Positions 611 to 64,000 are shown, counted from the first letter of the stretch. The stretch is DNA of 64,000 bases from a virus (IMGVR_UViG_3300045988_118370:81863-145862); one strand, 5' to 3'. The notes: generated by a model from the sequence alone, not told the origin. Program-made: numbers and translations.

Positions 611-612
611 CG

Positions 613-43015: not shown

Positions 43016-43017
43016 AT

Positions 43018-44236: not shown

Positions 44237-44308
44237 TTGTTTTACCTCTTTCTTTTCCTCTTGGATTGATTGTATTATACCATATGGGGAGGGGCTTGTC
44301 AAGCCCCT

Positions 44309-44458
44309 TTAATATAATTGTTCCCCATCGTGGTAGCGCTCATATTCCGCTTCAAGGAAGTCGAGAATAGTTTCAAAGTCGTCTGCATCTGCGGGGTCTG
44401 CAAAGACCTTTTCAAGGACTTCGTTAGTGTGTCTGTTGTAAACTCGAATCATATCCAT
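44309..44458 (-). CDS. small acidic protein (49 aa)
   Basis: RBS GAAAGAGGTAAGTAAA before the ATG. MDMIRVYNRHTNEVLEKVFADPADADDF.... TAA stop. Confidence 0.35.
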   Translation of the reverse strand: MDMIRVYNRHTNEVLEKVFADPADADDFETILDFLEAEYERYHDGEQLY

Positions 44459-44527
44459 TTTACTTACCTCTTTCTTGATTGTATATGTATTATATCATGC
44501 GAAAGGGCTTTTGTCAAGCCCTTTTTA

Positions 44528-44734
44528 TCAGAAATGATAATTTCTGATGATGGCGTCGAACTTGGGAGCATATACGTTTTCCCACTGTTCTTCAAGAGTC
44601 TGGTCATTCGTGCGATATAATTCCCACGAGACTGCGCCATAAGCGTTATGCTTGAAAAACTCGGCGTCGCAGGGCATCTGCTCGGCATAGAGAAGCTGGG
44701 TCTTGATAAAAGAGTGAATGTTGTAGTTAGTCAT
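44528..44734 (-). CDS. hypothetical protein (about 68 aa)
   Basis: Internal ATG MTNYNIHSF with RBS GAGGT. Confidence 0.4.
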   Translation of the reverse strand: MTNYNIHSFIKTQLLYAEQMPCDAEFFKHNAYGAVSWELYRTNDQTLEEQWENVYAPKFDAIIRNYHF

Positions 44735-44819
44735 TTTATTTACCTCATCTTTCCGTTCCCCTTGGAACAATTATAGTATAGCAAATGCTTAGGCATTTGT
44801 CTATTGACGGATCACACAA

Positions 44820-45140
44820 AATTGGGAAAAATAATTTGTGCAAATTTTCGCAACTTTTTGCTTGACAAATTGCTGGCCCTGTGATATAATGGAAATTCCG
44901 GGCGCGTGGGCCGTGCGCGCCCGGCCGAACAACCATTGTTAAAATTTTAACAAAAATGAAATAGAAAGGGCGCGGTAATTATCGGCTACCGCGCAAACCA
45001 TAGTATGAAAAATTTGTTTACTACTTCAAGAGGCTTACCATTTCCTCTTGACATGATTATAATACCACAACGGGGCGAGTTTGTCAATAGTTTTTTGAAA
45101 AAAAATTTCAGGCGAGATAATTAAATCTCGCCTGAAAATT
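44820..45140. promoter_or_regulatory. cassette copy 5 (extended, carries a second 8-bp-stem hairpin)
   Basis: TTGACA 44862-44867, 17-nt spacer, TATAAT 44885-44890. Hairpin ccgggcgcgtgggccgtgcgcgcccgg. Extra hairpin gcgcggtaattatcggctaccgcgc. Revcomp promoter TTGACAAACTCGCCCCGTTGTGGTATTAT. Terminator tttcaggcgagataattaaatctcgcctgaaa. Confidence 0.65.
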
Positions 45141-45366
45141 ATACGTCCCACATGGCTTCCGCAATCCAGAAGTATTCATAGCGGAGTTTGGACTGAATCG
45201 CAAACAAGGCGTTCGCAAGTTCTCCGCCGTCTTTGTAGTCTTCCGCGTCTGAAAATTTCTGACTTTCTTTCGCAATTCTTTGAGCCAACTTTTCAAGGGC
45301 GTCTGCCTGTTCTCTCAAAGCCTGCGGGATAGGTTTTTCATTCATTATTTGTTTCCCCCTTTGCAA
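45139..45366 (-). CDS. hypothetical protein (75 aa)
   Basis: ORF. Confidence 0.5.
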   Translation of the reverse strand: MQRGKQIMNEKPIPQALREQADALEKLAQRIAKESQKFSDAEDYKDGGELANALFAIQSKLRYEYFWIAEAMWDV

Positions 45367-45694
45367 AGTTAGAGGTTAGCTCTAACGTATGTCCGCATTC
45401 ATCGCAATACCAATAGTAATAAACTGTTCCATACCGGCCATGAGAAGCATTTACAAATTTCATTTCATTTCCGCAGATGGAGCAATAGCCGTCATTCCAT
45501 GCTTTTTTGTCGGCATTGTGGTCAGCGACTACTGCGCCCGTCATGCCATAGCCAAGAGCGCACGAAATGAGAAGACCAACCAACAGTCTGACTACTGGGT
45601 GAGACTTTTCCATGTTGCACCAACAGACAAGGCAGACAAATAGCGCAAGGACTGCGCTAAAAATTCCGCCAACAATTAAAAATTCCGTTCCCAT
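45338..45694 (-). CDS. membrane protein with C-terminal zinc-ribbon (118 aa)
   Basis: Two TM helices, then CSICGN...YWYCDECGH. Confidence 0.5.
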   Translation of the reverse strand: MGTEFLIVGGIFSAVLALFVCLVCWCNMEKSHPVVRLLVGLLISCALGYGMTGAVVADHNADKKAWNDGYCSICGNEMKFVNASHGRYGTVYYYWYCDECGHTLELTSNFAKGETNNE

Positions 45695-45846
45695 TTTTAT
45701 TTCCCCTTTTCACATTTAATGCATTGAGCGTGTGTTCCGCACTTTCCATCGCAATAAGGACATTCCATTATTTTATTCCCCTTTCCTTTGATACATTAAG
45801 TATAGCAGAAAAAGGGCTTTTTGTCAAGCCCTTTTTCTTATTTTTT

Positions 45847-46209
45847 TTAATTTTCTTTTCTAATGGAATAGTAGGTTCGGCTTCCCTTTTTGGTGTAGGT
45901 CAACTTTTTGTCAATCCAACAAAGATGACCGCAATACCATGCAACGGTGGCGCAAGGATATTCTTTGCCTGTCTCACGGTAAAGAATAAACTGGATTTCC
46001 GTAGGGCACAGGGGCTTTTCCGCCTTTGAGAGAACGTCGAGCATCATGTTTTTCATCATGGTGTTGCGGATTTCCTGTTTCAGTTTCCGCGCTTCCTGAG
46101 CTTCCTCGAATTTCTGGCAAGCCCGTTCCGCCTGAAACACGTCCATTCCGGTGAAAGTGCCATCATCAAGGCATTTTCTCAAAAGACTATAAACTTCAAA
46201 GTTCATCAT
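45847..46209 (-). CDS. hypothetical protein (120 aa)
   Basis: ORF. Confidence 0.5.
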   Translation of the reverse strand: MMNFEVYSLLRKCLDDGTFTGMDVFQAERACQKFEEAQEARKLKQEIRNTMMKNMMLDVLSKAEKPLCPTEIQFILYRETGKEYPCATVAWYCGHLCWIDKKLTYTKKGSRTYYSIRKEN

Positions 46210-46312
46210 GTTAGCATTTCCCTTTCCTTTATTGTGCTTTTATTATAGCATCTGCTTTTGAATTTGTCAAGAAGTTTTTTGGAAAAAAGAGGGAAAAATT
46301 TTCCCTCTTTAT

Positions 46313-46585
46313 TTATCCCCAATAGATCGAAAGAACGTTGTCAATGTAGCTGGCTTTATAGCCATAATTCTGCATAATATCTTTGCAAGCCTGCCTGACG
46401 CCCTTGTCATTTAATGAAGCAAGAGAACACTCGTAAAGTGTTTCTCCCGTTCCTGCCACACGCTCAATTTCCGGCATGATGTGGTCTCCGATAAACGCAC
46501 GCGCGAGGGCATTATTTTTAGCTTGGATTTCTTTGCGGACTTCTTCGGCTTTGCGCGTCATTTCATAAGCATATTTAATTTCCAT
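46313..46585 (-). CDS. hypothetical protein (90 aa)
   Basis: ORF. Confidence 0.5.
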   Translation of the reverse strand: MEIKYAYEMTRKAEEVRKEIQAKNNALARAFIGDHIMPEIERVAGTGETLYECSLASLNDKGVRQACKDIMQNYGYKASYIDNVLSIYWG

Positions 46586-46660
46586 GGTGTTTCTCCCTTT
46601 CCTTTGATGCTTTTATTATAGCATAGAGGGCTTGTTTTGTCAAGCCCTCTATTTAATTTT

Positions 46661-46969
46661 TTAGCAATAGGCCAGATTCCCGCGCGCCCAGCCATATACG
46701 CTGATTTGATTGCACGCCTTGCCGATTTCAAGTGCCTGCTTCTTGGTCTGCACTCTCTTGGACTTGTCAACATAATAGATGCCGTTCGCAAGCCACACAC
46801 CGCAGTTTCCGCCGAAGTCCTTGACCGCATTGATAGCTTCGCGGGCGGTCTTACACTCAACGCCGTTGGTAGCGACCTGCCAGCCGGACTTGTAGTTGAC
46901 TTTCTTGCCATATTTGAGAGTCATGCCGTCGTTTTCAGCGAGTTTGAGAATAGAACGAATGTTAATCAT
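46661..46969 (-). CDS. hypothetical protein (102 aa)
   Basis: ORF. The alternative-frame ORF 46558..46911 is rejected. Confidence 0.5.
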   Translation of the reverse strand: MINIRSILKLAENDGMTLKYGKKVNYKSGWQVATNGVECKTAREAINAVKDFGGNCGVWLANGIYYVDKSKRVQTKKQALEIGKACNQISVYGWARGNLAYC

Positions 46970-47059
46970 GTTGTAAATCCCTTTCCGGTTTGGTAGGTTT
47001 TCCTTCCCTTACTGTGATTATAGTATAGCACCGATTCGGGATTCTGTCTATTGACACTT

Positions 47060-47220
47060 TGCACAAAAATTTGCCCCAAAAATTTGTTGAATCTGCCTAT
47101 TGACAAAAACTCGGCGCGCCAGGTCCGTTCGCGCGCCGGCCGATTATACCACAAAATTTTGAAATTGTCAATAGGTAAAATGCACAAAAAAATCTTCCCA
47201 TTTTTGGGGAGATTTTCATT
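47060..47220. promoter_or_regulatory. cassette copy 6
   Basis: TTGACA 47099-47104, then hairpin cggcgcgccaggtccgttcgcgcgccg. Revcomp promoter TTGACAATTTCAAAATTTTGTGGTATAAT. Terminator tcttcccatttttggggaga. Confidence 0.65.
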
Positions 47221-47228
47221 TTTATTTT

Positions 47229-47468
47229 TTAGCCATCAACATAAACGATAAGAACATCATCTTTGGCTTTCAAACCGCTGACAGGCAATCCCAGCACCCA
47301 TTCTTCGCTTACGCCCAAAACCTCACCATTCAGAGTCATGCGACCTTTGCGGTCTTTGAGGTAGCGCCCGCAAGTGTTTTCATTTATCACTTCGATGCCG
47401 TTCCCCTCATAGAACATCAGCGCGCCCTTTACCAGACCAATCACATTTTTAACCATGCCCAAAGTCAT
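47229..47468 (-). CDS. hypothetical protein (about 79 aa)
   Basis: Internal ATG MTLGMVKNV with RBS AAAGAGGTTGACAAA. Confidence 0.4.
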   Translation of the reverse strand: MTLGMVKNVIGLVKGALMFYEGNGIEVINENTCGRYLKDRKGRMTLNGEVLGVSEEWVLGLPVSGLKAKDDVLIVYVDG

Positions 47469-47598
47469 TTTGTCAACCTCTTTCGTTTTTAATGTCGTTC
47501 CCCTTGGAACAATTATAGTATAACATGAGCTATAATAAAAGTCAATAGGCAAAATGTATAAAAACTCGGCAGGATTTTGTATGTCCTGCCGAGTTTTT

Positions 47599-47790
47599 TT
47601 AGTTCAAACTCTCGATGACTTCGCCGGTCAGTGCGTCGATAACATCGACCGAAACAACGTTGTCCGCGTCGATGAACTTCTTTGCAAGGATACAAGCGTT
47701 TTCCCGCCCGAACACCGGAATTTCATGGCGATAATAGAATACATCGCTTGCCTTGTAGTTGTAGTAGTTGATAGAAACATTAAATAACAT
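47599..47790 (-). CDS. hypothetical protein (63 aa)
   Basis: ORF. Confidence 0.45.
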   Translation of the reverse strand: MLFNVSINYYNYKASDVFYYRHEIPVFGRENACILAKKFIDADNVVSVDVIDALTGEVIESLN

Positions 47791-47895
47791 TTGGTTTATC
47801 CCCTTTCCTTTTATATTCTTATTATACCATAGATTCGGGATTTGTCAATAGTTTTTTTGAAAAAAGTTTGAAAAAAAATAAGAGCGTTTCCGCCC

Positions 47896-48150
47896 TTATT
47901 TCTCATAAACGATAATGTTGTTGCCTAACTTTTCAACGCGAGAATCTTCACAAAAGTGATAGGTGAAGTCCGCTGAAAGATGTTTGAGAAATTCGCGTCT
48001 CCATTCGCGGGACTTCGGCTCTAATTCAAAGAGAATGTAAAGCGTTTCCTCTAACCGGTCGAGAAAGTTTTCAGTGTCCGCGATGTTGAATTTGCCCGCG
48101 AGCTTCGGAGCAGAAGAAGTGCCAATAATAAGAATGTTGTAAGTAGTCAT
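47896..48150 (-). CDS. hypothetical protein (about 84 aa)
   Basis: Internal ATG MTTYNILIIG with RBS GAAAGGGGATAAAAACC. The longer track ORF reads through the leader and promoter. Confidence 0.4.
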   Translation of the reverse strand: MTTYNILIIGTSSAPKLAGKFNIADTENFLDRLEETLYILFELEPKSREWRREFLKHLSADFTYHFCEDSRVEKLGNNIIVYEK

Positions 48151-48251
48151 GGTTTTTATCCCCTTTCTTATTGTATCTACATTATAACATTTGCTTCTGG
48201 ATTTGTCAAGAGTTTTTATAAAAAAATAAGGGCTTTTTTCAGCCTTTATTC

Positions 48252-48413
48252 TTAGCACTTGACCCACGTGTTGACTAACTTCCGCTCAATGGTCGCGGGC
48301 TTCGTCAGAGTGTTTGCATACGCCTGCGCTTCTTTCTTAGTCTTAAAGTAAGTCGGCAGGTAATAGCCAAGGCGAGCGCTGTAATTATCTTCGGTGTAAA
48401 CTCTGTATTTCAT
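48252..48413 (-). CDS. small protein (about 53 aa)
   Basis: ATG with RBS GAAAGGGGAAAACAAAAG. Confidence 0.35.
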   Translation of the reverse strand: MKYRVYTEDNYSARLGYYLPTYFKTKKEAQAYANTLTKPATIERKLVNTWVKC

Positions 48414-48509
48414 CTTTTGTTTTCCCCTTTCTTTACTGTAATTATAGTATAGCACTTACTTCTGGATTTGTCAAGGGCTTTTATAAAAAAATTAAGGGCT
48501 AAAAAGCCC

Positions 48510-48671
48510 TTAATTTAACACCGCGACGACCTCGCCGTTCATGCAGGCGTGGACATCGAACTCCACGCCCTTATAGGTGTCGGAGTAAAGATACGTCCAG
48601 TCATCGCCGAGGACATAGGCCAGGGGCTTGACAGGAAGAACGCCGTCGAGAAGAGTCTTGATAGTAGTCAT
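48510..48671 (-). CDS. small protein (about 53 aa)
   Basis: ATG with RBS GAAAGGTTAATTCA. Confidence 0.35.
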   Translation of the reverse strand: MTTIKTLLDGVLPVKPLAYVLGDDWTYLYSDTYKGVEFDVHACMNGEVVAVLN

Positions 48672-48779
48672 TGAATTAACCTTTCTGGTGTTTGGGATTT
48701 TCCTTTCCCTTTCTGATATTATAATACCACAGACCGCAAAGAATGTCAAGTGTTTTTTTCAAAAAAAAAGAGAAGTTTT

Positions 48780-48902
48780 TCAACTTCTCTTTCTACGGCG
48801 AATCGCTCTCTTTACGCGGTGCTCCACGTATTCGATGAGCGCACCCGCGCCGATAACACCGACATAGATAGCGAGAAGAACAAGACCATCGTGAGTAGAC
48901 AT
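48780..48902 (-). CDS. membrane micro-protein (about 40 aa)
   Basis: ATG with RBS GAAAGAGGTAAATCAA. One TM helix and a basic tail. Confidence 0.3.
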   Translation of the reverse strand: MSTHDGLVLLAIYVGVIGAGALIEYVEHRVKRAIRRRKRS

Positions 48903-48981
48903 TTGATTTACCTCTTTCTTTCTTTTGATGTATTCATTATACCAGACAAAGGGGCTTTTGTCAAGCCCCTTTTTTATTTTT

Positions 48982-49200
48982 TTACAGTTCTTTTCCAACC
49001 TTAACAAATACGATTTTCTCCGGTAAGACTTCGATGCCCTTAATGCCCGCTTCATTGACTTCCTTGTTCGTGCAAGTCCACCCAAACTCATCTAATGCGT
49101 CCCATTCATCGTTCCCGCTGGGAGTCCAAGTGTTGAATCCATCATCAATCATCACGTCATAGCCCTTGCTGTAAGTCTCCATAATCTGTTCGATAGTCAT
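48982..49200 (-). CDS. hypothetical protein (about 72 aa)
   Basis: ATG MTIEQIMETY with RBS GGAAAGGGGAATACAACAA. Confidence 0.4.
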   Translation of the reverse strand: MTIEQIMETYSKGYDVMIDDGFNTWTPSGNDEWDALDEFGWTCTNKEVNEAGIKGIEVLPEKIVFVKVGKEL

Positions 49201-49383
49201 TTGTTGTATTCCCCTTTCCTTTGATGATACTATTATAGCATTTCGGGATAGGAATGTCAAGTGGTTTTTGGCAAAAAATGGAAAAAATTTTGCTTTAACG
49301 CTTTACTGTGGTAAAGTTCGGGCTGGGACGCCCTACACGCGCACTACGGCGCAAGAGAAAGAGCGGGAAGCCCGCTCCCGCCC

Positions 49384-51844: not shown

Positions 51845-52010
51845 TTTTTTCTTATAATAATAATAAAATAAAAATAAAGAAATGTCAAGTCGTAGAGTGT
51901 GATTGGGCAAAAGTTATTTGTTTTGTTAAAAAAATTTTTAAATATAAAAAGAAAAAATTTTAAATGAAACTTGACAAAAAAAATTTTTTCGAGTATAATA
52001 TAAATATAGA
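51845..52010. promoter_or_regulatory. divergent promoter pair: leftward TTGACA-N17-TATTAT and rightward TTGACA-N17-TATAAT at the early/late boundary
   Basis: Plus strand: TTGACA 51971-51976, 17-nt spacer, TATAAT 51994-51999, RBS CTGGAGGTAGAAA, ATG 52024. Minus strand: revcomp TTGACATTTCTTTATTTTTATTTTATTAT at about 51855-51890. Confidence 0.6.
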
Positions 52011-52023
52011 CTGGAGGTAGAAA

Positions 52024-53079
52024 ATGATAAAACTTGATTATTCTTTACAAACTCCAGAAGAAAGAAATCAATTAGTCGAACAAATTTTGGCTGATAATCC
52101 AGATCCGCCTGAAAAGTATTTAGAAATTTTAGCAGACTATTTGGTTCTTTGTATGGAGAAACAAGAAAAAAAGGAGAAAAAATTATTAACTGATAATCGT
52201 ATGGCTACAGTTAATAAGCGTGAGACTTCTTTTGAAGGTCTTGTTTCCCAACTCGAAAATGGCGAAGATGGAATTTATAATTTAATTACAGATAATAGAA
52301 ATACAATATTTCAACCACATATTACAATTACAAAAAAAGATTTAGAAGAGATACCAAGTTTAAATTAGTTAAGAGAAGCCATTAATGTTTGGGAGGCTAA
52401 ATTAAAAGTAACAGAAGGCAAAGATGCTTTTGTTATTAAAAAGGCTCTTATTGAAATGCGTAAAGATTAGTATGTTATGAAAAATGCTTATCGTCGTCCA
52501 ATAGTGCCTACAAAATTAACCAGATCAAAGTCTTATATTCCATTAGACGATAAAACATTTATTTTTGATGATGATGGTTTTCCCATTCCTGATGGAATTA
52601 GTTTATTAAGACCTGAAATATGTTCTGCGGTTTTATGTAATTATTCCCGATTAAAGCAAGATAGTTGGGGCGAATATGATAAAGACTTATGGTATTTAAT
52701 GGAGGATTTTGATAAGCTTTGTGATAAAGCTTTAGCTAATTATCCTCTTTATGATAGAATCGTTGAATATAAAATTGATGGTTTACAAAATATTGACATT
52801 CAAGAGAAAATACAAATGGAATTTGGTATTAAACATAGTCTTGAATATATTTCAAGTTTATGGCGTAATAAAATTCCAAAATTAATTGCTTCGACTGCGG
52901 AAGATGAATATTTAGATAATTATTATTTAAATGTTGAAAAAGGTAAATATAAAAAATGTAGTCGTTGTGGTAAAATAAAATTAGCTCATAATAAATATTT
53001 TAGTAAAAATAAAACAAGTAAAGATGGCTTTTATAGTATTTGTAAAAGTTGTCGAAATTCTAAGGTCAAAAAATCTTAA
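52024..53079 (+). CDS. hypothetical late protein (351 aa) with 2 in-frame TAG; C-terminal zinc-ribbon
   Basis: Track fragments 52024..52368 and 52477..53079 are in one frame, joined through TAG 52366 and TAG 52468. CSRCGK...CKSCR at the C-terminus. Confidence 0.6.
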
Positions 53080-53128
53080 TATTGTCCTTTTGTTTATAAT
53101 AAATAATTGAAAGGAGAATTTTTTATTT

Positions 53129-54028
53129 ATGGCTGAAACATATTATTGCGAAAAATGTAATCGCACAATGAATGGCACAGAATTTTATTCATCTAATAAT
53201 TTAGAAAAATATCCTAATGATGGTAAATTTCCTGTGTGCAAAAAATGTATGACAATGCACGTTGATAATTGGAATCCAGATACTTATTTATGGATTTTAC
53301 AAGAAGCGGATGTTCCTTATGTTCCAGATGAATGGAATAAATTAATGGAAAAATATGGACGCGATCCGCAGTCTATGACCGGTATGACAATTCTTGGACG
53401 TTATTTGTCAAAAATGAAACTCAAATAGTTTAAAGATTATCGTTGGAAAGATACAGAATTTTTACAGTAGATGGCAAATAATAAATTAGAGCAAACTATG
53501 AAACGTCAAGGGTATGATGCTCAATAGATTGCAACCGCTATTGAAAAAAGTTCTATCACTATTCCAGAAGGAGAACTAAAAGAGCCGGTTTACGCTCCAC
53601 CACCCAATGCCCCTACGGAAGATTATTTCGCACAATAGAGCGGTGAAGTGGAACAAGAATTAGACTTAACTGATGAAGACCGCACTTATTTAAGACTTAA
53701 ATGGGGCAAAACTTATAAACCTGAAGAATGGGTTAAACTTGAATAGTTATATGAAGAAATGATGGCTTCTTATGATATTCAAGGCGCCGGACATAAAGAT
53801 ACGCTAAAATTAATATGTAAGACATCTTTAAAGGCAAATCAATTGATCGATATTGGTGATATTGAAGGTTTCCAAAAGATGAGCAAAGTATACGATAGCT
53901 TGATGAAGTCTGGTAAATTTACCGCTGCTCAAAACAAAGCAGAATCAGGTGAATTTGTTGATTCAATTGGCGAATTAATTGAATTATGTGAAAAAGAAGG
54001 ATATATTGAAAGATATTATGTTGAATAG
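53129..54028 (+). CDS. hypothetical late protein (299 aa) with 5 in-frame TAG; N-terminal zinc-finger
   Basis: Fragments 53129..53428 and 53759..54028 share one frame with no TAA or TGA between them. CEKCNR...CKKCM. RBS GAAAGGAGAA. Confidence 0.6.
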
Positions 54029-54040
54029 CCACATGATAAA

Positions 54041-54316
54041 GTGGATTTAACTATTCAAGATATGCAACGTTATACTCGCACTCTTATCGAAGATGAAACT
54101 AATATTAGCACAATGGTAGAAAAGGCTTTACGCGAAAATGCTAAAGAAGATGAAGAGAAAGCAAAGAACGCGGAAAGCGATATTGTTGATGATGCTGATT
54201 TAAGTATTGAAGAACTTGAAAAAACTATTAAAGATAGTGATTACGCGGATTTTGAGGAATTTAAAGAATAGGAGTCCGCGCAAGATAATGAGTTCTTATA
54301 GGGTTTAGATAAATAA
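54041..54316 (+). CDS. small acidic protein (91 aa) with 2 in-frame TAG
   Basis: ATG 54041. TAA 54314-54316 overlaps the terL start (TAATG). Confidence 0.45.
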
Positions 54317-56055
54317 TGGCATTACAAGATTTACTGTAGTTAAGTGATAGCCGTAGAAAAATAGGTCTATCACCGGAGCGAGTAGAAGCGGTAATGCCCA
54401 CTATCCGCAAATACGTTGCCTTTTGGAGAGAATATCCTGATTTATTTGTAGATTTTATGGTGCGAGGAAGACGCACTGAAATAAAAGATGGAGAATTTAA
54501 TTTTTATTTTTATTAGAGAGTATTTCTCCGTTCTGTTATGCGTTATTAGTATGTTTACGCGGTTTTTCCTCGTGCTTATTCTAAATCATTTTTGTCTGTT
54601 ATGGCATTAATGATTAGATGTATTTTATATCCTGGCGCACATTTGTTTGTTACTTCTGGAGGTAAAGAGCAAGGTGCTAGTATTCTTCATGATAAAGTTC
54701 AAGAAATATGTGAACTTATTCCAAGCTTTAATCGAGAAATTGATTGGAGTCGAGGAAAAACTCTTGAAGGAAAAGATAAAGTTAGATATGTGTTTAAAAA
54801 TGGTTCAGTTTTGGATAACCTCGCAGCCCGTGAAAGCACTCGTGGTCAGCGTCGTCATGGTGGACTAATGGAAGAATGTGTCGGTATTGATGATGCTATT
54901 CTTCGTGAAGTTATTATTCCTGTTATGGCAATTTCTCGTAGAGCTAAAGATGGCACTACCAATGAACAAGAGCCATTAAACAAATCACAAATCTATATTA
55001 CTACTGCTGGTTATAAGGGCACATTCCCTTATGATAGACTTATTGGTTTCTTAGTTCGTATGGTGACTTAGCCCGATCGTTGTATGGTATTAGGTGGAAC
55101 ATGGCGAACTCCTGTTGCGGTAGGATTACAAAGTAAAACATTTATTACTGACCAAAAGAATGAAGGAACTTATAATGAAGCTTCATTCGAACGTGAATAT
55201 GAATCTAAGTGGTCAGGAACTGTTGAGGATGCTTTCTTTAATGGAGAGCATTTTGATAGAAATAGAAAATTATTATAGCCTGAGTATGAAGCTTCTGGAC
55301 GGGCGGGCGCACAAGCTTATTATGTACTTTCTGTAGATGTAGGTCGTAAAGGATGCGATTCAGTAGTTTGTGTATTTAAAGTAACACCACAAGCCCAAGG
55401 TCCAGCTATTAAGTCTTTAGTAAATATGTATACTATGTCAGATGATCATTTTGAAGATTAGGCTATTAAATTAAAGAAATTATTTTATAAATATAAAGCT
55501 AAAACTTTAGTTATAGATGGTAATGGTTTAGGTATTGGACTTTTGGATTATATGGTAAAATCTCAAAATGATGAAGATGGTGAATTTTTACCTGATTTTG
55601 GTGTTGAGAATGATGATGATGGATATTATAAAAAATATCGCACACCAAATACTCAATTTGATGCTATGTATGTTATTAAAGCAAATGCTCCAATAAATAC
55701 TGAATGTCATGCTAATGCTTAGACTCAGTTACAAGCGGGTAAGGTAAAATTCTTAATAGATGAGAGAACAGCTAAAGAAAAATTATTAGCTACTCAAAAA
55801 GGTTCAAAAATGACTCCTGAACAAAGGGCAGATTATTTAAAACCATTTACTTTAACCTCCATATTAAAAGAAGAAATGATGAATTTACGCGAAGAAAATG
55901 AAGGTATTAATATTATTTTAAAATAGGCAAATCGCGGAATTCGTAAAGATAAATTTTCGGCTTTTGAATATGGATTATATTATTTAAAACTTGAAGAAGA
56001 TAAAAAGAAAAAACGTAAAAAGTTTAATGCGGCTGATTGGTGCTTTTTAAATTAA
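54316..56055 (+). CDS. terL: terminase large subunit (579 aa) with 8 in-frame TAG
   Basis: Single frame 54316 to TAA 56053-56055 once TAG is sense; track fragments 54592..55071 and 55084..55278 are in it. ATPase-like FVTSGGKEQGAS and GGLMEECVGID. Nuclease-domain motifs VLSVDVGRKG and LVIDGNGLGIG. Position is just upstream of the putative portal. Confidence 0.7.
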
Positions 56056-56067
56056 GGAGGGTGGAAA

Positions 56068-56424
56068 GTGCGTGCTTCAAGAGGAGAAATTAAAATTGAA
56101 GAAATCTTAGAAGAAGCAGGACTACCTTTTAAAATGGAATACATCTTTCCAGATTTAAAAAGCCCAAGCGGGCGTCCGCTTCGTTTTGATTTTGTTATAT
56201 TTGATGATGATGGAAAAATTGATTTCATTATTGAGTATTAGGGAAAATAGCATTATGAAGCCAGTTCTAAATTTGGTGGAAAGCGCGGTTTATACCAGTA
56301 GCAATATAATGATAATCAAAAAAGACGTTTTTGCGCTTTACATGATTTTAGATTAATAGAGATTCCATATACCGACGAAAACCTTATTTCTTATGATTAT
56401 ATAATGAAATTAGCAGGTTATTAA
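56068..56424 (+). CDS. putative PD-(D/E)xK-type endonuclease-like protein (118 aa) with 3 in-frame TAG; GTG start
   Basis: RBS AAGGAGGGTGGAAA before GTG. Candidate catalytic motif RFDFVIFDDDGKIDFIIEY(TAG)GK(TAG)HY. Wedged between terL and the putative portal. Confidence 0.4.
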
Positions 56425-56437
56425 AGGAGGTGGAACT

Positions 56438-58087
56438 TTGGATACGCAAGATCGTAATGAATAGATTCATGCTAAAGGTTTTGATATTTATAATAGTCGT
56501 TATGAATATAATTACAATGATACTATGGATTATGCTAATAGAAAAATAAAAGTTGGCACAAAAACTTTAGATGATGCTATTTTAAAACTTGGTGATTATA
56601 GTAAGATTAGATACCCAGGTCAAACTCGTATTATCACGAAACCCGATGTGCTTCGCGCACTAGCAGAAAGAGATTTAAATGCTTTGCGATATATTTCTAA
56701 TTTTTATTATGATATAAGTGGTGTATATCAACGAGTTTGTAATTATGTTGCTTTTTTATACCGCTATGACTGGTATATCGCGGCTGAGACTTATGATGAT
56801 AGTGTAAAAGAAGAAAAAGTTTTAAAAGATTTTTATAGAATGTTGAATTATTTTGATAATAGTTATATTAAAAAGATTTGTGGAGATATTGCTTTACAAG
56901 TTGTTAAAAATGGATGCTATTATGGATATATAGTTCCTTCAGAGAAAAATCTAATTTTACAAGAATTACCAGTTAGATATTGTAGAACACGTTATAGTGT
57001 AAATAATACCCCAGTTGTTGAATTTGATATGCGATTTTTTGATACTTTTAGAGATATGAATTATCGTTTAAAAGTATTAAAATTATTTCCAGAAGAATTT
57101 GCTAAAGGTTATGTTCTATATAAACAAGGAAAACTTGCTTTAGAAGAGGCAGTTGGATGCTAGCATACTGGTAGTTGGTATGTTCTTGAACCAGAAAATT
57201 GTGTTAAATTTAATATTAATAATAGTGATGTTCCTATTTTTGTAAATTCGATTCCTACTATTATGGATTTAGATGCGGCGCAAGATCTTGATCGCAAGAA
57301 ACAAATGTAGAAGTTACTTAAAATTTTAGTCCAAAAGCTCCCAATGGATAAAAATGGTGATTTGATATTTGATGTTGATGAAGCCAGAGATATCCATAAT
57401 AATGCCGTTTAGATGTTATAGAGGGCTATTGGAGTAGATGTTTTAACTACATTTACTGACGTAGATTCTATTGATATGTCTGATAAGAATACTACTACAA
57501 CGACAGATGATTTAGCTAAAGTTGAACGTAGTGTTTATAATTCATTAGGTATTTCATAGAATTTATTTAATACTGATGGTAATATGGCTTTAGAAAAATC
57601 AGTATTAAATGATGAATCTACAATAAGAAGTTTAATTTTATAGTTTAATATATTTTTTAATAGAATTATTGAAAAAAAGAGTAGTAATAAGAAATATAAT
57701 TTTAGATTTTATTTATTAGAAACTACTTAGAATAATTATCAAACACTTTCTAAAATGTATAAAGAACAAGCGCAAATGGGACAATCAAAGTTATTGTCTT
57801 AGATTGCTCTTGGACATTCGTAGAGTTTTATTCTTAATGCAGCTCATTTTGAAAATGAGATTTTACATTTAAGTGAAATTATGATTCCTCCTCTTATGAG
57901 TTCTACTATGGGTAGTGAAGATATTTTGGGTTTAAAAGGTTCATCATCTAATAATAAAACTCAAAATAATTCAGGAAGCTCAGGTTCTGGAACTGCTAAA
58001 GCTTCTAATGGTGAGGCAGGACGTCCGGAAAAACCTGACGATTAGAAAAGTGAAAAAACTATTCAAAATAAAGAAGCAATGAAATAA
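56438..58087 (+). CDS. putative portal protein (549 aa) with about 11 in-frame TAG
   Basis: RBS AAAGGAGGTGGAACT before TTG 56438. One frame, containing track fragment 56525..57163, to TAA 58085-58087. Called from size and position after terL. Confidence 0.5.
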
Positions 58088-58096
58088 GGAGGATTT

Positions 58097-59674
58097 ATGA
58101 AACATACAAGTATTAAATTAAATACACCTTGTGAGTTTATAAATATAACTCCTGTAAATCCTTTAATTTCTAAATGCCAAATTAAGGTTTGCTATGTAGA
58201 TGATAAACCTAATCGCAATAAAAGCGTAATTACTAAAGACGTAGCAACTGAGATGGCTAATAGCCTTCCTGGTAGTCCTATTGTTGGTTTTTTTAATGAA
58301 AATACCGAAGATTTTGAAGAACATAATAGGATAATTGAATTATCTAATGGCGAATTTAGAATGAAAGATAATACTCGCCCTTATGGTTTTGTTGATCTTG
58401 GAGCTAGAGTTTGGTTTTAGAAATTTTTGGATGATGGTGTTGTCGAACGTGAATATTTAATGACTGAAGGTTATTTGTGGACTGGTTAGTATCCTGAATG
58501 TAAACGTGTAGTTAATAAAGGAAATAATCATTCTATGGAGCTTGATGAAAAAACATTAAATGCTACGTGGGCAAAAGATAGCAATGGAAAACCTTAGTTT
58601 TTTATTATAAATAAGGCAATTATTTCTAAACTTTGTATTTTGGGAGAAGAAAATGAACCTTGTTTCGAAGGCTCCCAAATCAATGTGAATTTTTCATTCG
58701 ATGATGGTTTTAAGAACACTTTGTTCTCCATGATGAATGAACTTAAAGAATTTATGAAAGAAGGAGGAGCCAAAGTGTTTACACAATACGCTGTTAATAT
58801 TGGCGACAATTTGTGGAATTCTCTTTATTCTTATATTGAGAATAAGTATCCTGTCGAACCAAAGAATTATTGTTCTGTTTATCGCATTGAAGGCGTTTGC
58901 GAAGATGGTGAACAAAAGTTTGCTGTTTTGAAGAATAAGCAAGATGAAAAATACTATCGTATGGATTTTTCTCTTGAAGCAGAGAATTTCGTTCCTTCTG
59001 ATACTTTAATTGAAGTAACTGATTATGCTCCTGCGGCCGAGCCTCAGTTTGCTCTTAATGCTGTAGAAGAATTTGAAAATGAGTATGCTTCAAAAAAGAA
59101 AGCAGAAGAGGACAAAAATAATAAATCAAATAATCCTGACGGTGAAAATAAATCAGAGGGTAATGATAATAAAAAGAACCCTGATAATGGAGATCCCTCT
59201 AATAAGTCTGATAAAGGCGACAACGGTGAGAATGATGATGATAAAAAGAAAAAGAAAAATTATTCTCTTGAGGATGTTGTTGAATATACTGAACTTAAAG
59301 CTCAGTATGATGAATTACAGACTAAATTCGCGGCTCTTGAAACTGAAAATAATAGCTTGAAAGAGCAAATTGCTCCACTTGCTGAATTTAAAAATGCCGC
59401 TGAAAAGAAAGATAAAGAAGATATGATTGCTAAATTCTATATGCTTTCTGATGAAGATAAGGCTGATGTTGTTGAAAATATTGATAAATATTCTCTTGAT
59501 GATATTGAAGCTAAATTATCTGTTATTTGTGTTCGCAACAAGGTGAGTTTCGACCTTGACGAAAATAATAAGCCCAATGGTGCTACTACTTTTAATTTGA
59601 ACGATAATGGTTCAGAAGATGATGATATGCCCGCTTGGGTGAAGGCGGCTTTTGCTACCGCCAACAAAAATTAA
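58097..59674 (+). CDS. putative scaffold (possibly protease-scaffold fusion) protein with 3 in-frame TAG
   Basis: Fragments 58097..58420 and 58640..59674 are in one frame. Long acidic and coiled-coil low-complexity C-terminal half. Located between the putative portal and the capsid genes. Confidence 0.5.
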
Positions 59675-59691
59675 TAAGGAGGACATACTAA

Positions 59692-60609
59692 ATGTTTAAA
59701 GACTTTTTGAATAAGAATCTTCCTATTAAGTCTCAGGCAAAGTATGTTGAGTTTGGTTACGGTCAGGTCGAGCCTAATCACCTTTCCGCACAAAGAAATG
59801 CTCAAATCTATGCTCAACTTCCCGCCAATAAAGACATTGAGATTCTTGAAAATGGTCAGTTTGTAAAGTATGACTATGCTGCTAATAATAACGGTGTCGG
59901 CGAAGTCAACTTCACTGGCGAAGGCGAATGGATGCTCGTTTATAACGAGATTAAACTTTATCGTGATCATTATGATGGCAGTAAGCAGTGGGATTGCGAA
60001 TTTGCTATGATTAAAGATGACTATCAGGCTCGTGTTTATAGCCCTTATGATTGGGAGCATACCGAGGTTGAATATGGTGGTCGTTTCTGGAATGGTGTTG
60101 ATGAAAAGGGTCAAACCTATAAGTTAATCAATCAGACCGTTTCCGCAGATCAAGGTTTAAAGACTGTTACTATTGCTGGTCGTGTTTATGATGTTGATGA
60201 AACCGGCAAGTTTACTTATGATGGTAATGAATATACTCTTGATAGTAATCATCAGGTTGCTAATGTTCCTGTAAAGTATTACTATGATAAGCTTCTTACT
60301 GATGTTCCTGATATGTATGAAATGAATTGGACCAATGATCCATATCATAAGTTAGGTATTTATCATGAGAAGTTCATGGAATCTGGCACTTCTATGGTTC
60401 CTCGTGTATTTAAGACCATGATTGGTGATCTTTATACTACTAATATGATTAATGAAGAGACTCTTGCTGTTGGAGATAAGCTTTCTCCTTCTGCTGCTAC
60501 AAAGGGTATTCTTAGCAAAACTGGCGACGATTCAATGACCTGGCAGGTTGTTAAGGTTTATACTATGCCTGATGGTCAAAAGGGTGTCAAGGTAATGCGT
60601 ATTAAGTAA
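59692..60609 (+). CDS. capsid-associated protein (305 aa), no TAG
   Basis: Intact ORF immediately upstream of the major capsid gene. RBS TAAGGAGGA. Confidence 0.55.
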   Translation: MFKDFLNKNLPIKSQAKYVEFGYGQVEPNHLSAQRNAQIYAQLPANKDIEILENGQFVKYDYAANNNGVGEVNFTGEGEWMLVYNEIKLYRDHYDGSKQWDCEFAMIKDDYQARVYSPYDWEHTEVEYGGRFWNGVDEKGQTYKLINQTVSADQGLKTVTIAGRVYDVDETGKFTYDGNEYTLDSNHQVANVPVKYYYDKLLTDVPDMYEMNWTNDPYHKLGIYHEKFMESGTSMVPRVFKTMIGDLYTTNMINEETLAVGDKLSPSAATKGILSKTGDDSMTWQVVKVYTMPDGQKGVKVMRIK

Positions 60610-60626
60610 GAAAGGAGAAAAGGATA

Positions 60627-61733
60627 ATGTTAGATAAAAATAATTTAATTGCTCTTATGAAGCAAGTTGCTAAGGCTGATCCTTCTGCTCCTGTTGCTTA
60701 TAGTTATGAGGGAAAAAATCTTAGTTATGAAGCCTTAAATGAAACTCTTCGTAATGAAATGAATGAGTTGGCTGGTACTTACGCTCTTTATCGTGAAAAT
60801 AAGAATCTTATTTTCTCTATGATTGAGCAGACTCTTGATGAGGTTCTTCCTAAGAAAGTTATTCAGCAATATGATCAGTTTGCTGAGGTTAAGACTTTCG
60901 CTCAGGGTGATAAGCCTATTTTCCGCCGTCCTCTTAATAATCGTGCTCGTGCTAAGCAGTTTGTAACTCGCGTTGGTCTTGCTGGTATTTATGAAGTCTT
61001 CAAGCTCGGACCTAAAGAGAATGAAGCCTTCGAGGTACGCACTAGCGCTATCGGCGGAGCTGCTCAGATTGGCTTCGAAGAATTCCTTGATGGTCGTGTT
61101 GATTTTGGTGAAGTAACCAAGATCATCATGGATGGTATGGATGAACTTATTTATAAAGAAGTCGCTGCTGCTCTTAGATCTTCTATCAATCAGCTTCCTC
61201 CTGCTAACCGCGTTGCGGCTGCCGGATTTGATGAAGCTGCTATGGATCGTTTGATCACTATTGCTTCTGCTTATGGTACTCCTACTATTTATTGTACTTA
61301 TGAGTTTGCTGTTAAGATGATTCCTCATGAGGCTTGGAGATATACTGAAGCTATGAAGAACGAGCTTTGGAATAATGGTCGTCTTGCCACTTACAAGGGT
61401 ACTAAGGTTATTATTCTTGAGCAGGGCTTTGAAGATGAAACCAATACTCGTAAGGTTATTGATCCTGGTTATGCTTGGGTTATTCCTACGGGCGCTGATG
61501 GTAAGCCTGTAAAGATTGCTTTCGAAGGTGGCACTATTGTTGATGAATTCAACAATTATGATCGTTCTCGTGAGATTCAGGTTTACAAGAAGGTTGGCGT
61601 AGTTTGTATGCTTGCCAATAACATCTGTGCTTATGTTGATACTTCACTTCTCGGTCAGATGTATACTTGGAATTATGATGGAGTTACTGGTAAGGTTATC
61701 ACTTATGATGGTCGCCTTGACGGTACTGTCTAA
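60627..61733 (+). CDS. major capsid protein candidate (368 aa), no TAG
   Basis: Intact ORF in codon-optimised style, RBS AAAGGAGAAAAGGATA, strong terminator directly downstream. Typical position and size for an HK97-fold capsid protein. Confidence 0.6.
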   Translation: MLDKNNLIALMKQVAKADPSAPVAYSYEGKNLSYEALNETLRNEMNELAGTYALYRENKNLIFSMIEQTLDEVLPKKVIQQYDQFAEVKTFAQGDKPIFRRPLNNRARAKQFVTRVGLAGIYEVFKLGPKENEAFEVRTSAIGGAAQIGFEEFLDGRVDFGEVTKIIMDGMDELIYKEVAAALRSSINQLPPANRVAAAGFDEAAMDRLITIASAYGTPTIYCTYEFAVKMIPHEAWRYTEAMKNELWNNGRLATYKGTKVIILEQGFEDETNTRKVIDPGYAWVIPTGADGKPVKIAFEGGTIVDEFNNYDRSREIQVYKKVGVVCMLANNICAYVDTSLLGQMYTWNYDGVTGKVITYDGRLDGTV

Positions 61734-61746
61734 TTTAATATAAATT

Positions 61747-61790
61747 ATTCCATGGGGAGAAGGGATTAAACTCCCTCTCCCCATATTTTT
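61747..61790 (+). terminator. rho-independent terminator after the capsid gene
   Basis: GGGGAGAAGGGA-ttaaa-CTCCCTCTCCCC followed by TATTTTTGTTTT. Confidence 0.7.
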
Positions 61791-61819
61791 GTTTTATGAG
61801 TAAAAGGAGAAATTGAATA

Positions 61820-62413
61820 ATGATTAATAATGAAGATATTTATAATGTAAAAAATAGAAGCACTAGTGTAGTTGTTTATACTATTCCTGATACTAATTTG
61901 CGTCGTGAATTTGCGCCCGGTGAAACTAAGCGCATTCCATTTGGTGAGCTAGAGAAGTTAACTTATCAGGCGGGCGGCCGCGAATTAATTGCTAATTTTT
62001 TACAAATTTTAGAGCCAGAAGTAACTCATACTCTTAATGTTCATACTGAACCTGAATATAATATGTCAGAGCAACAAGTTGCTGATTTAATTCTTAATGG
62101 CTCATTAGATGCTTTTTTAGATGCTCTTGATTTTGCTCCTATTGGAATTATTGACTTAATCAAGAATTTATCTGTTAGCCTTCCTATTACTGATATTAAT
62201 AAGCGTAGAGCTTTGAAGGAAAAAACTGGGTTTGATGTTGATAAAGCTATTGCTAATGATATCGCTAGTAAAGAAGAAGATACTATTGTAGAGAAAGAAC
62301 CCGCTGCTAAGCGTCGTGTAGTAAGAGAAGAACCTGTTACTCAAGGTCGTCGCACAAGCGGTTCTGGATATAAAGTAATTAATAAAACCGAGGAAACTTC
62401 CTCCAAGAAATAA
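61820..62413 (+). CDS. hypothetical structural protein (197 aa), no TAG
   Basis: ORF with RBS AAAGGAGAAATTGAATA. Confidence 0.55.
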   Translation: MINNEDIYNVKNRSTSVVVYTIPDTNLRREFAPGETKRIPFGELEKLTYQAGGRELIANFLQILEPEVTHTLNVHTEPEYNMSEQQVADLILNGSLDAFLDALDFAPIGIIDLIKNLSVSLPITDINKRRALKEKTGFDVDKAIANDIASKEEDTIVEKEPAAKRRVVREEPVTQGRRTSGSGYKVINKTEETSSKK

Positions 62414-62432
62414 TTTATAGGAGGGTGATTAA

Positions 62433-63005
62433 GTGGGAACATTATTCTCAACTGTTTATAATCGCTTTCTAAACAAGGTTACTGATGATATGTATCTGGA
62501 ATTAACTCCCGAAGATACTCTAAGAGATTTATAGAATCTTATAATAGATGCTATTCCTGGATTTGAATTTCCGCGAAAAAATCTTTTAGATTATAATTTA
62601 GATGTCGCTACTATTAATGAATCTGATGCTATGCCGGATGATTTTATTGTAGGAACAGTATGGGGGGAACTTCCAGAACCGGGTGGAGAACCTCAAGTTT
62701 TAGTTGATAGATCCAGTTTTAATTGTGATCTAACTGAAGAAGAAATTAATATTTTAGCTATTTTAATGATGTGCGGTTGGACGCAAAGACAAGTCACTTC
62801 AATTGAGAATACTCGAATGAAATATAGTGGCTCTGATTTTAAATTTACTTCTTAGGCAAATCATCTATCAAAGCTATTGAATTTATTAGGTGAATGCCAA
62901 AGACAATCTCACCATATGTAGCGTTTATATAAACGCAGACGTCTAAATAACAAAGGTGAGTATGAATCTAATTGGGATGTGTTTAAAAGTCGATATGATT
63001 ACTAA
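62433..63005 (+). CDS. hypothetical structural protein (190 aa) with 3 in-frame TAG; GTG start
   Basis: RBS AGGAGGGTGATTAA before GTG 62433. Contains track fragment 62631..62855. TAA 63003-63005. Confidence 0.45.
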
Positions 63006-63303
63006 ATATAATTTTGATATTCCAATAGAGAGTATAAAAGTAAATTGTTTGCGCTTAACCAATCAATTATGGAAATTAATTCCAATGCGCGAAAATAATG
63101 AAGATTGGCATAAATAGCTAGAAACTGTTATAAATGAAATTGTGGGGTTTAGTGTGATTTTTAACGCTGAACCCCTTTATTTATAGTTATTAAATAAACT
63201 TGAGGGATTGTAGAATCAAGATACTGATTTTAATTTTTATCGTAAGACTGTGTTTGAAACGATCAGTCTTTTATAGGAGATAAATTATGGCGTCAGGGTT
63301 TGA
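62995..63303 (+). CDS. hypothetical protein (102 aa) with 4 in-frame TAG
   Basis: ATG 62995 overlaps the end of the previous gene. TGA 63301-63303. Confidence 0.35.
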
Positions 63304-64000
63304 TTATAGTAGTAAGCAACCTTTTAGATTATAGCAAGGTCGCTTAGAAATTTATGATAAGCCACCCTTTAAAGGTAGCCCTGTTGAAGGCGTTAATTAT
63401 ATGGCGGTTCGGCTCGGTCAGATGGGCGGAAATCGCCAACAAGAGCGTATGATTTTATCTAAGCGCAGAAGTTTAGATAGAGCAGTATGGAATTCATACC
63501 AAGCCGCGGAAATCATTAAATAGGATGCGGAATATAAAAAACCTATTAGGTGTTTGATTAATCCTAATAAATTAAAATAGGATTATGATGACAAGATTTT
63601 GTCTGTTGGAAATGAATATTAGTTTAAACCAGGAGATATTTTTGAATGGTGTGGAACTAATACCTATTGGATTTGTTATCTTTAGGATTTGACTGAATTA
63701 GCTTATTTTAGAGGAGATATTAGAAAATGCTCTTATAAAATAAATTGGGTAGATGAGGGAGAGAAGAAATCTACTTATGCAGCAATTCGCGGTCCTGTAG
63801 AAACGAAAATTAATTATATTCAGAAACATGAAATTAGTATAGATAATCCTAATTATTCATTAAATATTTTAATGCCAAAAAATAAAGATACATTAAGATA
63901 TTTTAAACGTTATACTAAATTTTATTTAGATAGTTAGGATGAGGGAGACAATTTAATTTGTTGGCGTGTTGAAGCTGTAGATTCTATAAGTATGCCTGGC
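63287..64000 (+). CDS. hypothetical tail-module protein, partial (continues past window end), at least 6 in-frame TAG
   Basis: RBS AGGAGATAAATT before ATG 63287. Same frame as track fragment 63689..63937. No TAA or TGA before the window end. Confidence 0.45.

Follow-up and report, generated by a model that had tools for sequence, protein, structure and literature searches.

Phages of the gut that recode the amber codon TAG (genetic code 15), among them the Lak megaphages and crAss-like phages, have reportedly been described in work by Ivanova in 2014 and by Borges and Peters in 2022. Such phages generally reassign TAG alone, are enriched for it in structural and late genes while other genes remain readable under either code, carry their own suppressor tRNA and show a low apparent coding density under translation table 11; most of those characterised infect Bacteroidota. 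About 1.2% of gut viral operational taxonomic units are predicted to use code 15, and 52% of the predicted code-15 phages carry a suppressor tRNA with the anticodon CTA (Sup-CTA) (PMC11210395). Reassignment of TAG to glutamine (Gln), together with Sup-CTA tRNAs, has been described in the group of phAss-1, for which Clostridia hosts are predicted (proposed Phassvirus, the 'Caudoviricetes code 15 clade' of NCBI, related to phage EF1; Babkin et al. 2023, PMC10607447). A further element of such systems are the theta ribozymes, which lie at the 3' ends of phage tRNAs lacking an encoded CCA, suppressors included, and have been proposed to raise the supply of suppressor (Kienbeck et al. 2024, PMC10879173). 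Here we analyse a stretch of 64,000 nucleotides (nt) from a virus (IMGVR_UViG_3300045988_118370:81863-145862; hereafter the window), centring on the late morphogenesis module of its plus strand (52024-64000). The window very probably uses code 15, with TAG read as Gln, TAA and TGA as sole terminators and a phage-borne suppressor tRNA with the anticodon CUA as the mechanism, in a genome of ~190-196 kb belonging to an SPbeta-like siphovirus of gut Bacillota. It shares the general traits of code-15 gut phages listed above but, unlike most characterised ones, lies in an SPbeta-like lineage of Bacillota phages.

Among deposited phages, the nearest to the window by portal protein are an unannotated faecal contig (52% identity) and then phAss-1 (38%). 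The virion modules of phAss-1 and of the window are homologous (amino-acid identity of 38% for the portal, 50% for the major capsid protein (MCP) and 44% for TerL), and both phages read TAG as Gln in terminase, portal and tail genes, carry a large tRNA array with a homologous long tRNA-Sup-CTA, come from the human gut and have a predicted Clostridia or Bacillota host. In contrast, they have no similarity at the nucleotide level and the phAss-1 genome measures 136 kb, against the ~190-196 kb judged here from near-identical contigs of 190,948-199,419 bp. Since members of Phassvirus are 80-86% identical to each other (PMC10607447), this lack of nucleotide similarity places the phage outside that genus. 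The nucleotide comparison was a megablast search of the 12 kb region against 50,697 INPHARED phage records, which gave no match.

The codon pattern noted in the late module is confirmed. Open reading frames (ORFs) were delimited from stop to stop, counting only TAA and TGA as stops, and their starts were picked by ribosome-binding site (RBS) and cross-checked against gene calls on near-identical contigs. Once TAG no longer counts as a stop, long ORFs tile the plus strand from 51964 to 64000 almost without gaps. The 12 contiguous genes (Table 1) contain 48 in-frame TAG in 3,927 codons (12.2 per 1,000 codons, or 30% of the combined Gln and TAG codon set) and neither an in-frame TAA nor an in-frame TGA. 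Ten of them terminate with TAA and one with TGA, the last leaves the window unterminated, and no gene anywhere in the window ends with TAG. TAG accounts for only 146 of the 916 stop triplets (16%) in the off-frames, two per gene, so that a set of 48 interruptions consisting entirely of TAG (a chance of ~0.16^48, calculated from the off-frame share) is not a chance outcome. Table 11 breaks the region into 17 ORFs of at least 60 amino acids (aa); with TAG as sense, the coverage of the plus strand by ORFs of that size increases from 0.63 to 0.92 and the median ORF length from 108 to 191 aa, whereas reading TGA as sense instead leaves the ORFs of the region almost unchanged.

These counts bear out much of the first-pass annotation of this DNA, which had proposed that TAG is sense and that TAA and TGA remain stops, had counted 2-11 TAGs in each large late gene (2 and 8 in the two genes upstream of terL, then 8 in terL, 11 in the portal gene and 3 in the scaffold-like gene) and had expected a table-11 coding density as high as the recoded one if it was wrong; the two densities are clearly unequal. 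All gene ends are indeed TAA or TGA, all but one being TAA. The accompanying statement that an RBS and a start codon follow each stop holds for nearly all genes but fails for terL, which shows no visible Shine-Dalgarno sequence because its start overlaps the preceding stop. A twelfth gene, the small overlapping one (62962-63303), had to be added to the earlier list; no other gene of the module terminates with TGA.

The segments joined by TAG belong to single proteins. The portal protein aligns with the profile of PHROG 2739 in one stretch (residues 74-546 to profile positions 56-494 of 501, E 4e-82) that spans 10 of its 11 TAGs, the first one (residue 9) lying upstream of the match. In a related locus (L013), whose proteins are 66-74% identical to those of the window, the portal gene is uninterrupted and contains no TAG, translating under table 11 into a protein 68% identical over 538 aa. 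Two other relatives, a contig binned with a Lachnospiraceae metagenome-assembled genome (MAG) whose MCP is 87% identical (L018) and GenBank MT836163 (L002), have no TAG in any of 11 orthologues. A database search with the portal retrieved more than 70 near-identical proteins from gut-metagenome contigs of up to 199 kb, in which the database gene caller had already read TAG as Gln, and dozens of contigs, assembled independently and from different samples, have TAG at the same sites. The concern that the joined parts might be separate proteins is thus answered, as matches to hidden Markov models (HMMs) and orthologue alignments cross the TAGs unbroken.

Codon alignments of orthologues identify the amino acid. 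Opposite the TAGs of the window, L018 has Gln at 24 of 43 sites, with E, D, K, R, P, G, A, L and V at the others, and the ordinary Gln codons in the same alignments are conserved to an equal extent (62 of 110). Gln also occupies 21 of 40 sites in L002 and is the top residue (11 of 34) in EF1, a cultured Enterococcus phage with the standard code whose proteins are 27-49% identical to those of the window. Tyr and Ser are absent opposite TAG from these three genomes and Trp occurs once, in EF1. Summed BLOSUM62 scores at TAG sites are highest for Gln (125 for L018 and 106 for L002), followed by Glu (72 and 64). When 16 loci are pooled (more than 600 sites), the codons opposite TAG include CAA (188), CAG (51), TAG itself (125) and GAA or GAG (64), with Tyr codons at 2 sites, Ser codons at 6 and Trp at none. 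Individual genes follow suit, since L018 has Gln at six of the eight TAG sites of TerL, L018 and L002 both have it at all three sites of the HNH gene, and the TAG sites of the first, sigma-like gene align with Gln in EF1. Moreover, three strains ~96% identical to the window in DNA (L003, L004 and L016) differ from it at TAG sites only by exchanges between TAG and CAG or CAA, in both directions. Conservation like that of Gln together with these strain-level exchanges makes TAG a synonym of the Gln codons. The code-15-like assignment proposed in the first-pass annotation therefore stands, and of the residues it had put forward for these positions (Gln, Trp or Ser) it is Gln that is found.

The window contains an array of 16 tRNA genes, among which there is neither a tRNA with the anticodon CUA nor a tRNA-Gln. 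When the product of the AAA ATPase gene at 613-1752 was looked up as an exact protein, two ENA contigs (193 and 195 kb) were retrieved, and a contig (L007), 99.5% identical to window positions 1-11752, reaches 9.4 kb further left. There, in L007 11753-21140, the array continues with two tRNA-Ile, a tRNA-Val, the CUA tRNA and a tRNA-Tyr. The CUA tRNA (L007 15957-16046; Rfam tRNA 57.8 bits) lies ~4.2 kb to the left of window position 1. Four IMG/VR contigs (161-196 kb) have the same gene; one of them matches the window at 99.9% identity across their overlap. The tRNA has a canonical 7/5 cloverleaf, a variable region of 21 nt, a U1.U72 mismatch and G73, and does not encode CCA. It belongs to a long-arm CUA family of 18 unique IMG/VR members with variable regions of 20-27 nt and a conserved loop motif YUGAAG; G73 is found in 15 of them and a weak or mismatched 1:72 pair (U:A, A.C, U.U or U.C) in 17. 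The helix of the variable region can be drawn in alternative registers that suit different members of the family, hence we make no claim of covariation.

In bacteria, tRNA-Gln is marked at its acceptor end by a weak 1:72 pair together with G73, elements that GlnRS and GatCAB read. A long variable arm with G73 is recognised by seryl-tRNA synthetase (SerRS), for which the long arm is the main determinant. The CUA tRNA departs from tRNA-Gln in lacking the short (4-5 nt) variable loop of class I; the codon evidence favours its acting as a Gln suppressor, if not a canonical tRNA-Gln, and its charging with Gln is a prediction. The suppressor adjoins a tRNA-Tyr of 90 nt whose anticodon arm is nearly identical, which made Tyr a candidate for the inserted residue; it was rejected given the 2 Tyr codons among the pooled sites and the unrelated acceptor stems. 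Pyrrolysine, the label that ARAGORN gives by default to CUA tRNAs, was discarded in view of the canonical 7/5 cloverleaf, the long variable region and the rarity of Lys opposite TAG. In phAss-1 there are Sup-CTA tRNAs of short and of long form, and three CUA tRNAs in all, compared with one so far here.

Two further tRNA-like elements were observed in and near the array. One (L007 15283-15345) is a degenerate copy of the 5' half of the suppressor (AGTGTAATGGTTGAGCACGGCG) followed by a GTTTGTG/CACAAAC hairpin, and may be a relic or else a further tRNA-like element of unusual form. The other, at 7004-7074 on the minus strand (Rfam tRNA 42.7 bits), has an anticodon loop of 6 nt that reads AUUUAA in the window and CUUCAA in L007; with one nucleotide missing, these loops would present the anticodons UUA and UCA, which match the stop codons UAA and UGA, and the gene may be a pseudo-tRNA. 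No release factor, CCA-adding enzyme, RNA ligase or aminoacyl-tRNA synthetase gene was found in the window.

Directly 3' of the suppressor tRNA, L007 16047-16101 matches the HDV-F-prausnitzii family of Rfam below its threshold (26.1 bits, E 0.017) and can be folded like the hepatitis delta virus (HDV) ribozyme, with a P1 of 7 bp opening on a G1.U wobble, a P2 of 7 bp, P3, a P1.1 of CC/GG, the L3 sequence UCCUCGC and J4/2 CUAA. A paralogue follows a tRNA-Trp without CCA in the window (Table 1); its P1, P2, P3 and P1.1 can all be paired, with UUCACGC as L3 and CUAA as J4/2, although its Rfam scores are only 12 and 10.4 bits. These folds were drawn by hand and their pairs verified by script. The two copies share the same architecture with different helix sequences, P1.1 of the window copy being compensated (UC/GA), so that the pairs covary, and in both cases the tRNA ends in G73-C and is then followed by G1 of the ribozyme (L007 16047 after the suppressor and 6909 after the tRNA-Trp). 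Both plausibly belong to the theta ribozymes (PMC10879173) and are predicted from their folds to cleave. Like these, they start 1-2 nt from the 3' end of a CCA-less tRNA, can be drawn as a nested double pseudoknot (G1.U wobble, L3 fitting UYCNCGC, C at the first position of J4/2, reduced P4), and occur in a gut Caudoviricetes phage that recodes TAG. Unlike them, they occur outside the Bacteroidota phages that account for ~90% of the published cases, and the likeness is drawn through the nearest Rfam model, with sub-threshold scores (26 and 10-12 bits), rather than through the authors' own descriptor. The suppressor of phAss-1 differs on this point, as its copy encodes CCA and has no ribozyme downstream, whereas the one described here lacks CCA and is followed by the HDV-like element. 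Elsewhere in the window, a twister-P1-like element (2204-2254, minus strand; searching 181 nt gave 39 bits, against a threshold of 67, with E 1.6e-7) separates a small ORF from the gene at 1963-2199; its conserved core is kept, one stem is absent, and the Shine-Dalgarno sequence of the gene downstream forms part of its 3' strand.

Recoding is present in the late morphogenesis module, as the first-pass annotation had stated, but is not restricted to it. The three fibre-like genes contain 13 TAGs, which represent 54% of their Gln and TAG codon set, and TAG also interrupts the GIY-YIG gene of the tRNA array and the 207-aa gene at 31257-31880, which suggests that recoding extends past virion genes. 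In-frame TAGs thus occur in two genes of homing-endonuclease type, the GIY-YIG one (3301-4080) and the HNH one (56068-56424). To the left of the window, L007 encodes a protein with NAGPA and SPOR domains, possibly a lysin, a Flg_new protein and two Mtd_N proteins, possibly receptor-binding proteins or targets of diversity generation, all with in-frame TAGs. In contrast, the 19 kb block of ~30 genes on the minus strand (10555-29562) has 0.2 TAG per 1,000 codons against 12.2 in the late genes; profile searches of this block (PHROG, Pfam and NCBIfam) retrieved only a peptidase, a phosphoesterase and domains of unknown function.

Within the module, the capsid gene and its two neighbours contain no TAG. 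For the capsid gene and that at 59692-60609 this agrees with the first-pass annotation, which had called them the most highly expressed genes; that level of expression was its own presumption, and 60627-61733 does encode an MCP homologue. Across 18 related loci the capsid gene has 0 or 1 TAG and the gene at 59692-60609 is TAG-free in 17 (L015 has one), while the other orthologues contain between 0 and 14. Overall TAG usage differs widely in the clade: L018 and L002 have no TAG, L013 has few, and L015, L019 and L020 have more of them than the window. Such a range from TAG-free to heavily recoded sets this clade apart from code-15 gut phages in general, and suggests that it has moved repeatedly or gradually between code 11 and code 15.

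According to Borges et al. 2022, recoded genes reportedly wait for the suppressor and code-neutral genes do not. The same timing model has been restated for theta ribozymes (PMC10879173). The skew of TAG across the window would agree with it. Applied to this phage, the CUA tRNA encoded in its array ~4.2 kb past the left edge of the window, with a tRNA-Gln-like acceptor end (weak U1.U72 and G73) and no CCA, would have its 3' end cut out by the HDV-like ribozyme. Once accumulated and charged with Gln, it would out-compete release factor 1 (RF1) at UAG and only then allow full-length translation of the terminase, portal, scaffold-like, tail and fibre genes, the two homing-endonuclease genes and the sigma-like factor. 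Genes acting earlier or at very high yield, presumably the opposite-strand block and the capsid gene with its two neighbours, would be free of TAG. The arrangement would then gate the timing of late and lytic functions. A consensus promoter at 51971-51999 precedes the sigma-like gene, which itself has two TAGs, and we infer that host RNA polymerase could transcribe 52024-53079 early, its full-length protein needing suppression.

Other explanations of the in-frame TAGs deserve consideration. That they are true stops, in a decaying or defective prophage, through an assembly artefact or between separately made fragments, might be suggested by the many ORFs into which table 11 splits the region and by the equally fragmented table-11 annotation of phAss-1 in GenBank; it is scarcely conceivable in view of the interruptions themselves (48 TAG, no TAA or TGA and no frameshift), the recurrence of the same TAGs in dozens of independent contigs, the HMM and orthologue alignments that pass through them and the fragments' lack of starts and RBSs of their own. 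If TAG is sense, it could still be read wholly or partly as serine or another residue, the CUA tRNA being charged by SerRS, which is blind to the anticodon. The 21-nt variable region and G73 would suit this, all the more because an engineered long-arm amber suppressor in Escherichia coli inserted Ser only when it had G73 (PMC5389517), and the short and long Sup-CTA tRNAs of phAss-1 leave room for two identities. We nevertheless hold it improbable, for Ser is found opposite TAG at 0 of 43 sites in L018, 0 of 40 in L002, 0 of 34 in EF1 and only 6 of the more than 600 pooled sites, TAG sites are conserved like ordinary Gln sites, strains exchange TAG only with CAG or CAA, and the weak or mismatched 1:72 pair of 17 of the 18 family members follows the tRNA-Gln pattern and not the G1-C72 of tRNA-Ser.

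Read-through could also be driven by the host, either because it reads TAG or has no RF1 or through mRNA context, with the phage tRNA incidental. No CUA tRNA lies in the window and only about half of the predicted code-15 phages carry a Sup-CTA tRNA (PMC11210395), both of which would accommodate such a host; this is nonetheless very unlikely, as the CUA tRNA is present in near-identical genomes, native reading of TAG gives no reason for the 19 kb block and the capsid gene of the whole clade to avoid it, and the absence of TAG from a relative as close as L018 favours a trait of the phage. Some observations do weigh against code 15 with a Gln-charged, phage-borne suppressor gating late functions. 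The suppressor lies outside the window and its presence in this exact genome is deduced from contigs 99.5-99.9% identical. Only ~85 kb of the ~190 kb genome were covered in total, so that further suppressor tRNAs, a release factor or a synthetase are possible. The long variable region with G73 is also a SerRS signal, the sequence being compatible with either charging identity, and most Bacillota are thought to make Gln-tRNA via GluRS and GatCAB, a route that may or may not accept a CUA anticodon. The ribozyme scores below its Rfam family threshold. Finally, the genes of the TAG-free block have no assigned function and are 'early' only by presumption, and the non-virion gene at 31257-31880 is heavily recoded.

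The relatives of the phage and its expression signals point to a Gram-positive-like host rather than to Bacteroides, as the first-pass annotation had proposed. The virion module contains the Pfam families YonG_N, YonD_N, YonB, YomW, YomV_2nd and YomU_Tube (names taken from precomputed hits on near-identical database proteins) in the order YonG, TerL, portal, YonD and, further on, YonB and YomW/V/U, with orthologues aligned to L001 and EF1. It shares this gene order, the Yon and Yom families and a large siphovirus-type Bacillota genome with the Bacillus prophage SPbeta and SPbeta-like phages; unlike it, the cultured SPbeta-like relatives align without recoding, at a protein identity of ~22-27%. 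Local Pfam and NCBIfam scans of the late proteins gave almost no matches, and PDB sequence searches with the capsid and portal proteins none. Beyond phAss-1, the next relatives are phages of Enterococcus, Bacillus, Brevibacillus, Lactococcus, Staphylococcus and Clostridioides; the nearest ones in culture infect Enterococcus, Bacillus, Staphylococcus and Lactococcus. Relatives among GTDB genomes lie in MAGs with the labels Mollicutes, Clostridium, Lachnospiraceae, Clostridia, Erysipelotrichaceae, Bacilli and Bacillota, with one Muribaculaceae outlier, and this binning is weakly consistent with a Bacillota host. The Mollicutes-labelled relative, with an MCP 98% identical, is a contig of 164 kb that is probably all phage; a code-4 host, which this label might imply, was rejected because TGA never occurs in frame and serves as terminator.

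RBSs of the AGGAGG type precede almost every gene, and the window contains 31 perfect TTGACW-N16-18-TATAAT motifs where 0.26 are expected, which confirms the consensus sigma70 promoters mentioned in the first-pass annotation. The SpoVT/AbrB-like regulator that it had also cited does exist (an AbrB/MazE/SpoVT-domain protein at 41232-41684 on the minus strand, PF04014), but is a weak marker of the host. Since recoding has been published for phages with predicted Clostridia hosts, a Gram-positive host is not new in this context. As many as 24 of the 31 motifs, most with a TGn extended -10, are concentrated in 33700-49300, a mostly minus-strand region with a GC content of 42-45% (30-38% elsewhere) whose ORFs are all small and match no family; it resembles an early region with a separate host-type promoter for almost every small gene.

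The features of the window are listed in Table 1. The sigma-like product of the first late gene has a C-terminal tail resembling a zinc ribbon or HNH domain, the C-terminal half of the scaffold-like protein is acidic and coiled-coil, and the capsid protein has a weak match to an HK97-fold MCP family. The N- and C-terminal halves of TerL also match two PHROGs of 'unknown function' (15503, E 5e-62, and 24618, E 6e-52), which were probably built from pieces of recoded terminases as cut up by table 11. The HNH gene keeps its position between terL and the portal gene across the clade, and the terminase region of EF1 carries an annotated intron HNH instead.

Table 1. Features of the 64,000-nt window, with the number of in-frame TAG codons and the basis of each assignment.
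Feature	Position	Strand	In-frame TAG	Basis
Phage tRNA array, 16 tRNA genes	354-7074	-		tRNA search of the window
GIY-YIG endonuclease gene inside the tRNA array	3301-4080	-	4	PF01541
Candidate HDV-like (theta-type) ribozyme	6853-6909	-		Directly 3' of CCA-less tRNA-Trp; paralogue of suppressor-linked copy
Three glycine-rich tail-fibre-like genes	7154-10435	-	4, 5, 4	ORFs; PF12810 on identical proteins
Block of ~30 genes, readable under either code	10555-29562	-	1 in 4,960 codons	ORF and codon counts
Gene, 207 aa, not recognisably virion	31257-31880	+	6	ORF/RBS call, strong Shine-Dalgarno sequence
Promoter motif TTGACA-17-TATAAT, sigma-A/sigma-70 type	51971-51999	+		Pattern search; directly upstream of first recoded late gene
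First late gene, sigma-like, 351 aa	52024-53079	+	2	phrog_5767 'sigma factor' family, E 9e-55
YonG-like, 395 aa	53129-54316	+	8	phrog_3314; PF27269 YonG_N on near-identical protein
Large terminase subunit TerL, 579 aa	54316-56055	+	8	phrog_2; start overlaps previous stop
HNH/homing-endonuclease-like, 118 aa	56068-56424	+	3	PHROG profile match
Portal, 549 aa	56438-58087	+	11	phrog_2739, residues 74-546
YonD-like, scaffold-like, 525 aa	58097-59674	+	3	PHROG match; PF27290 YonD_N; HALZ coiled coil
Head-module gene without assigned function, 305 aa	59692-60609	+	0	ORF call
Major capsid protein (YonB family), 368 aa	60627-61733	+	0	PF27364 YonB; homologues annotated MCP
Head-module gene, 197 aa	61820-62413	+	0	ORF call, RBS
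Gene, 190 aa	62433-63005	+	3	phrog_3853; 3 of 3 TAG sites Gln in L018
Small overlapping gene, 113 aa	62962-63303	+	4	Same 113-aa gene called in near-identical contigs
Next virion gene, leaves the window	63287-64000	+	6 so far	ORF call, RBS, PHROG search

Recoding of TAG to Gln is already known in related gut phages, and the window provides a well-documented new example rather than a new phenomenon. In the literature searched we did not find a family of Gln-type suppressors with a long variable arm, the coupling of such a suppressor to an HDV-like ribozyme in a Bacillota phage, or a graded use of TAG that includes TAG-free near relatives within one clade. A more ambitious reading would combine a suppressor of a previously undescribed tRNA kind (Gln-type acceptor end, CUA anticodon and long variable region), released by a ribozyme, with a clade that spans the path from code 11 to code 15 and a sigma-like first late gene gated by TAG; we consider it possible, if somewhat short of probable. 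If it is true, the code switch would hang on one unusual, self-processing RNA, and a clade ranging from TAG-free members with 87% MCP identity to heavily recoded ones could capture the path from code 11 to code 15. For annotation, the practical consequence is that under table 11 the terminase, portal and tail genes of an abundant gut phage break apart. For biology, a well-resolved case in a Bacillota phage is added to a field dominated by Bacteroidota, together with material on the crossing from code 11 to code 15: a graded clade, TAG/CAG polymorphisms, a TAG-free capsid gene and an unusual suppressor with its ribozyme. The current picture of phage recoding is unchanged by these results, and it is the pairing of suppressor and ribozyme and the code transitions within the clade that merit attention.

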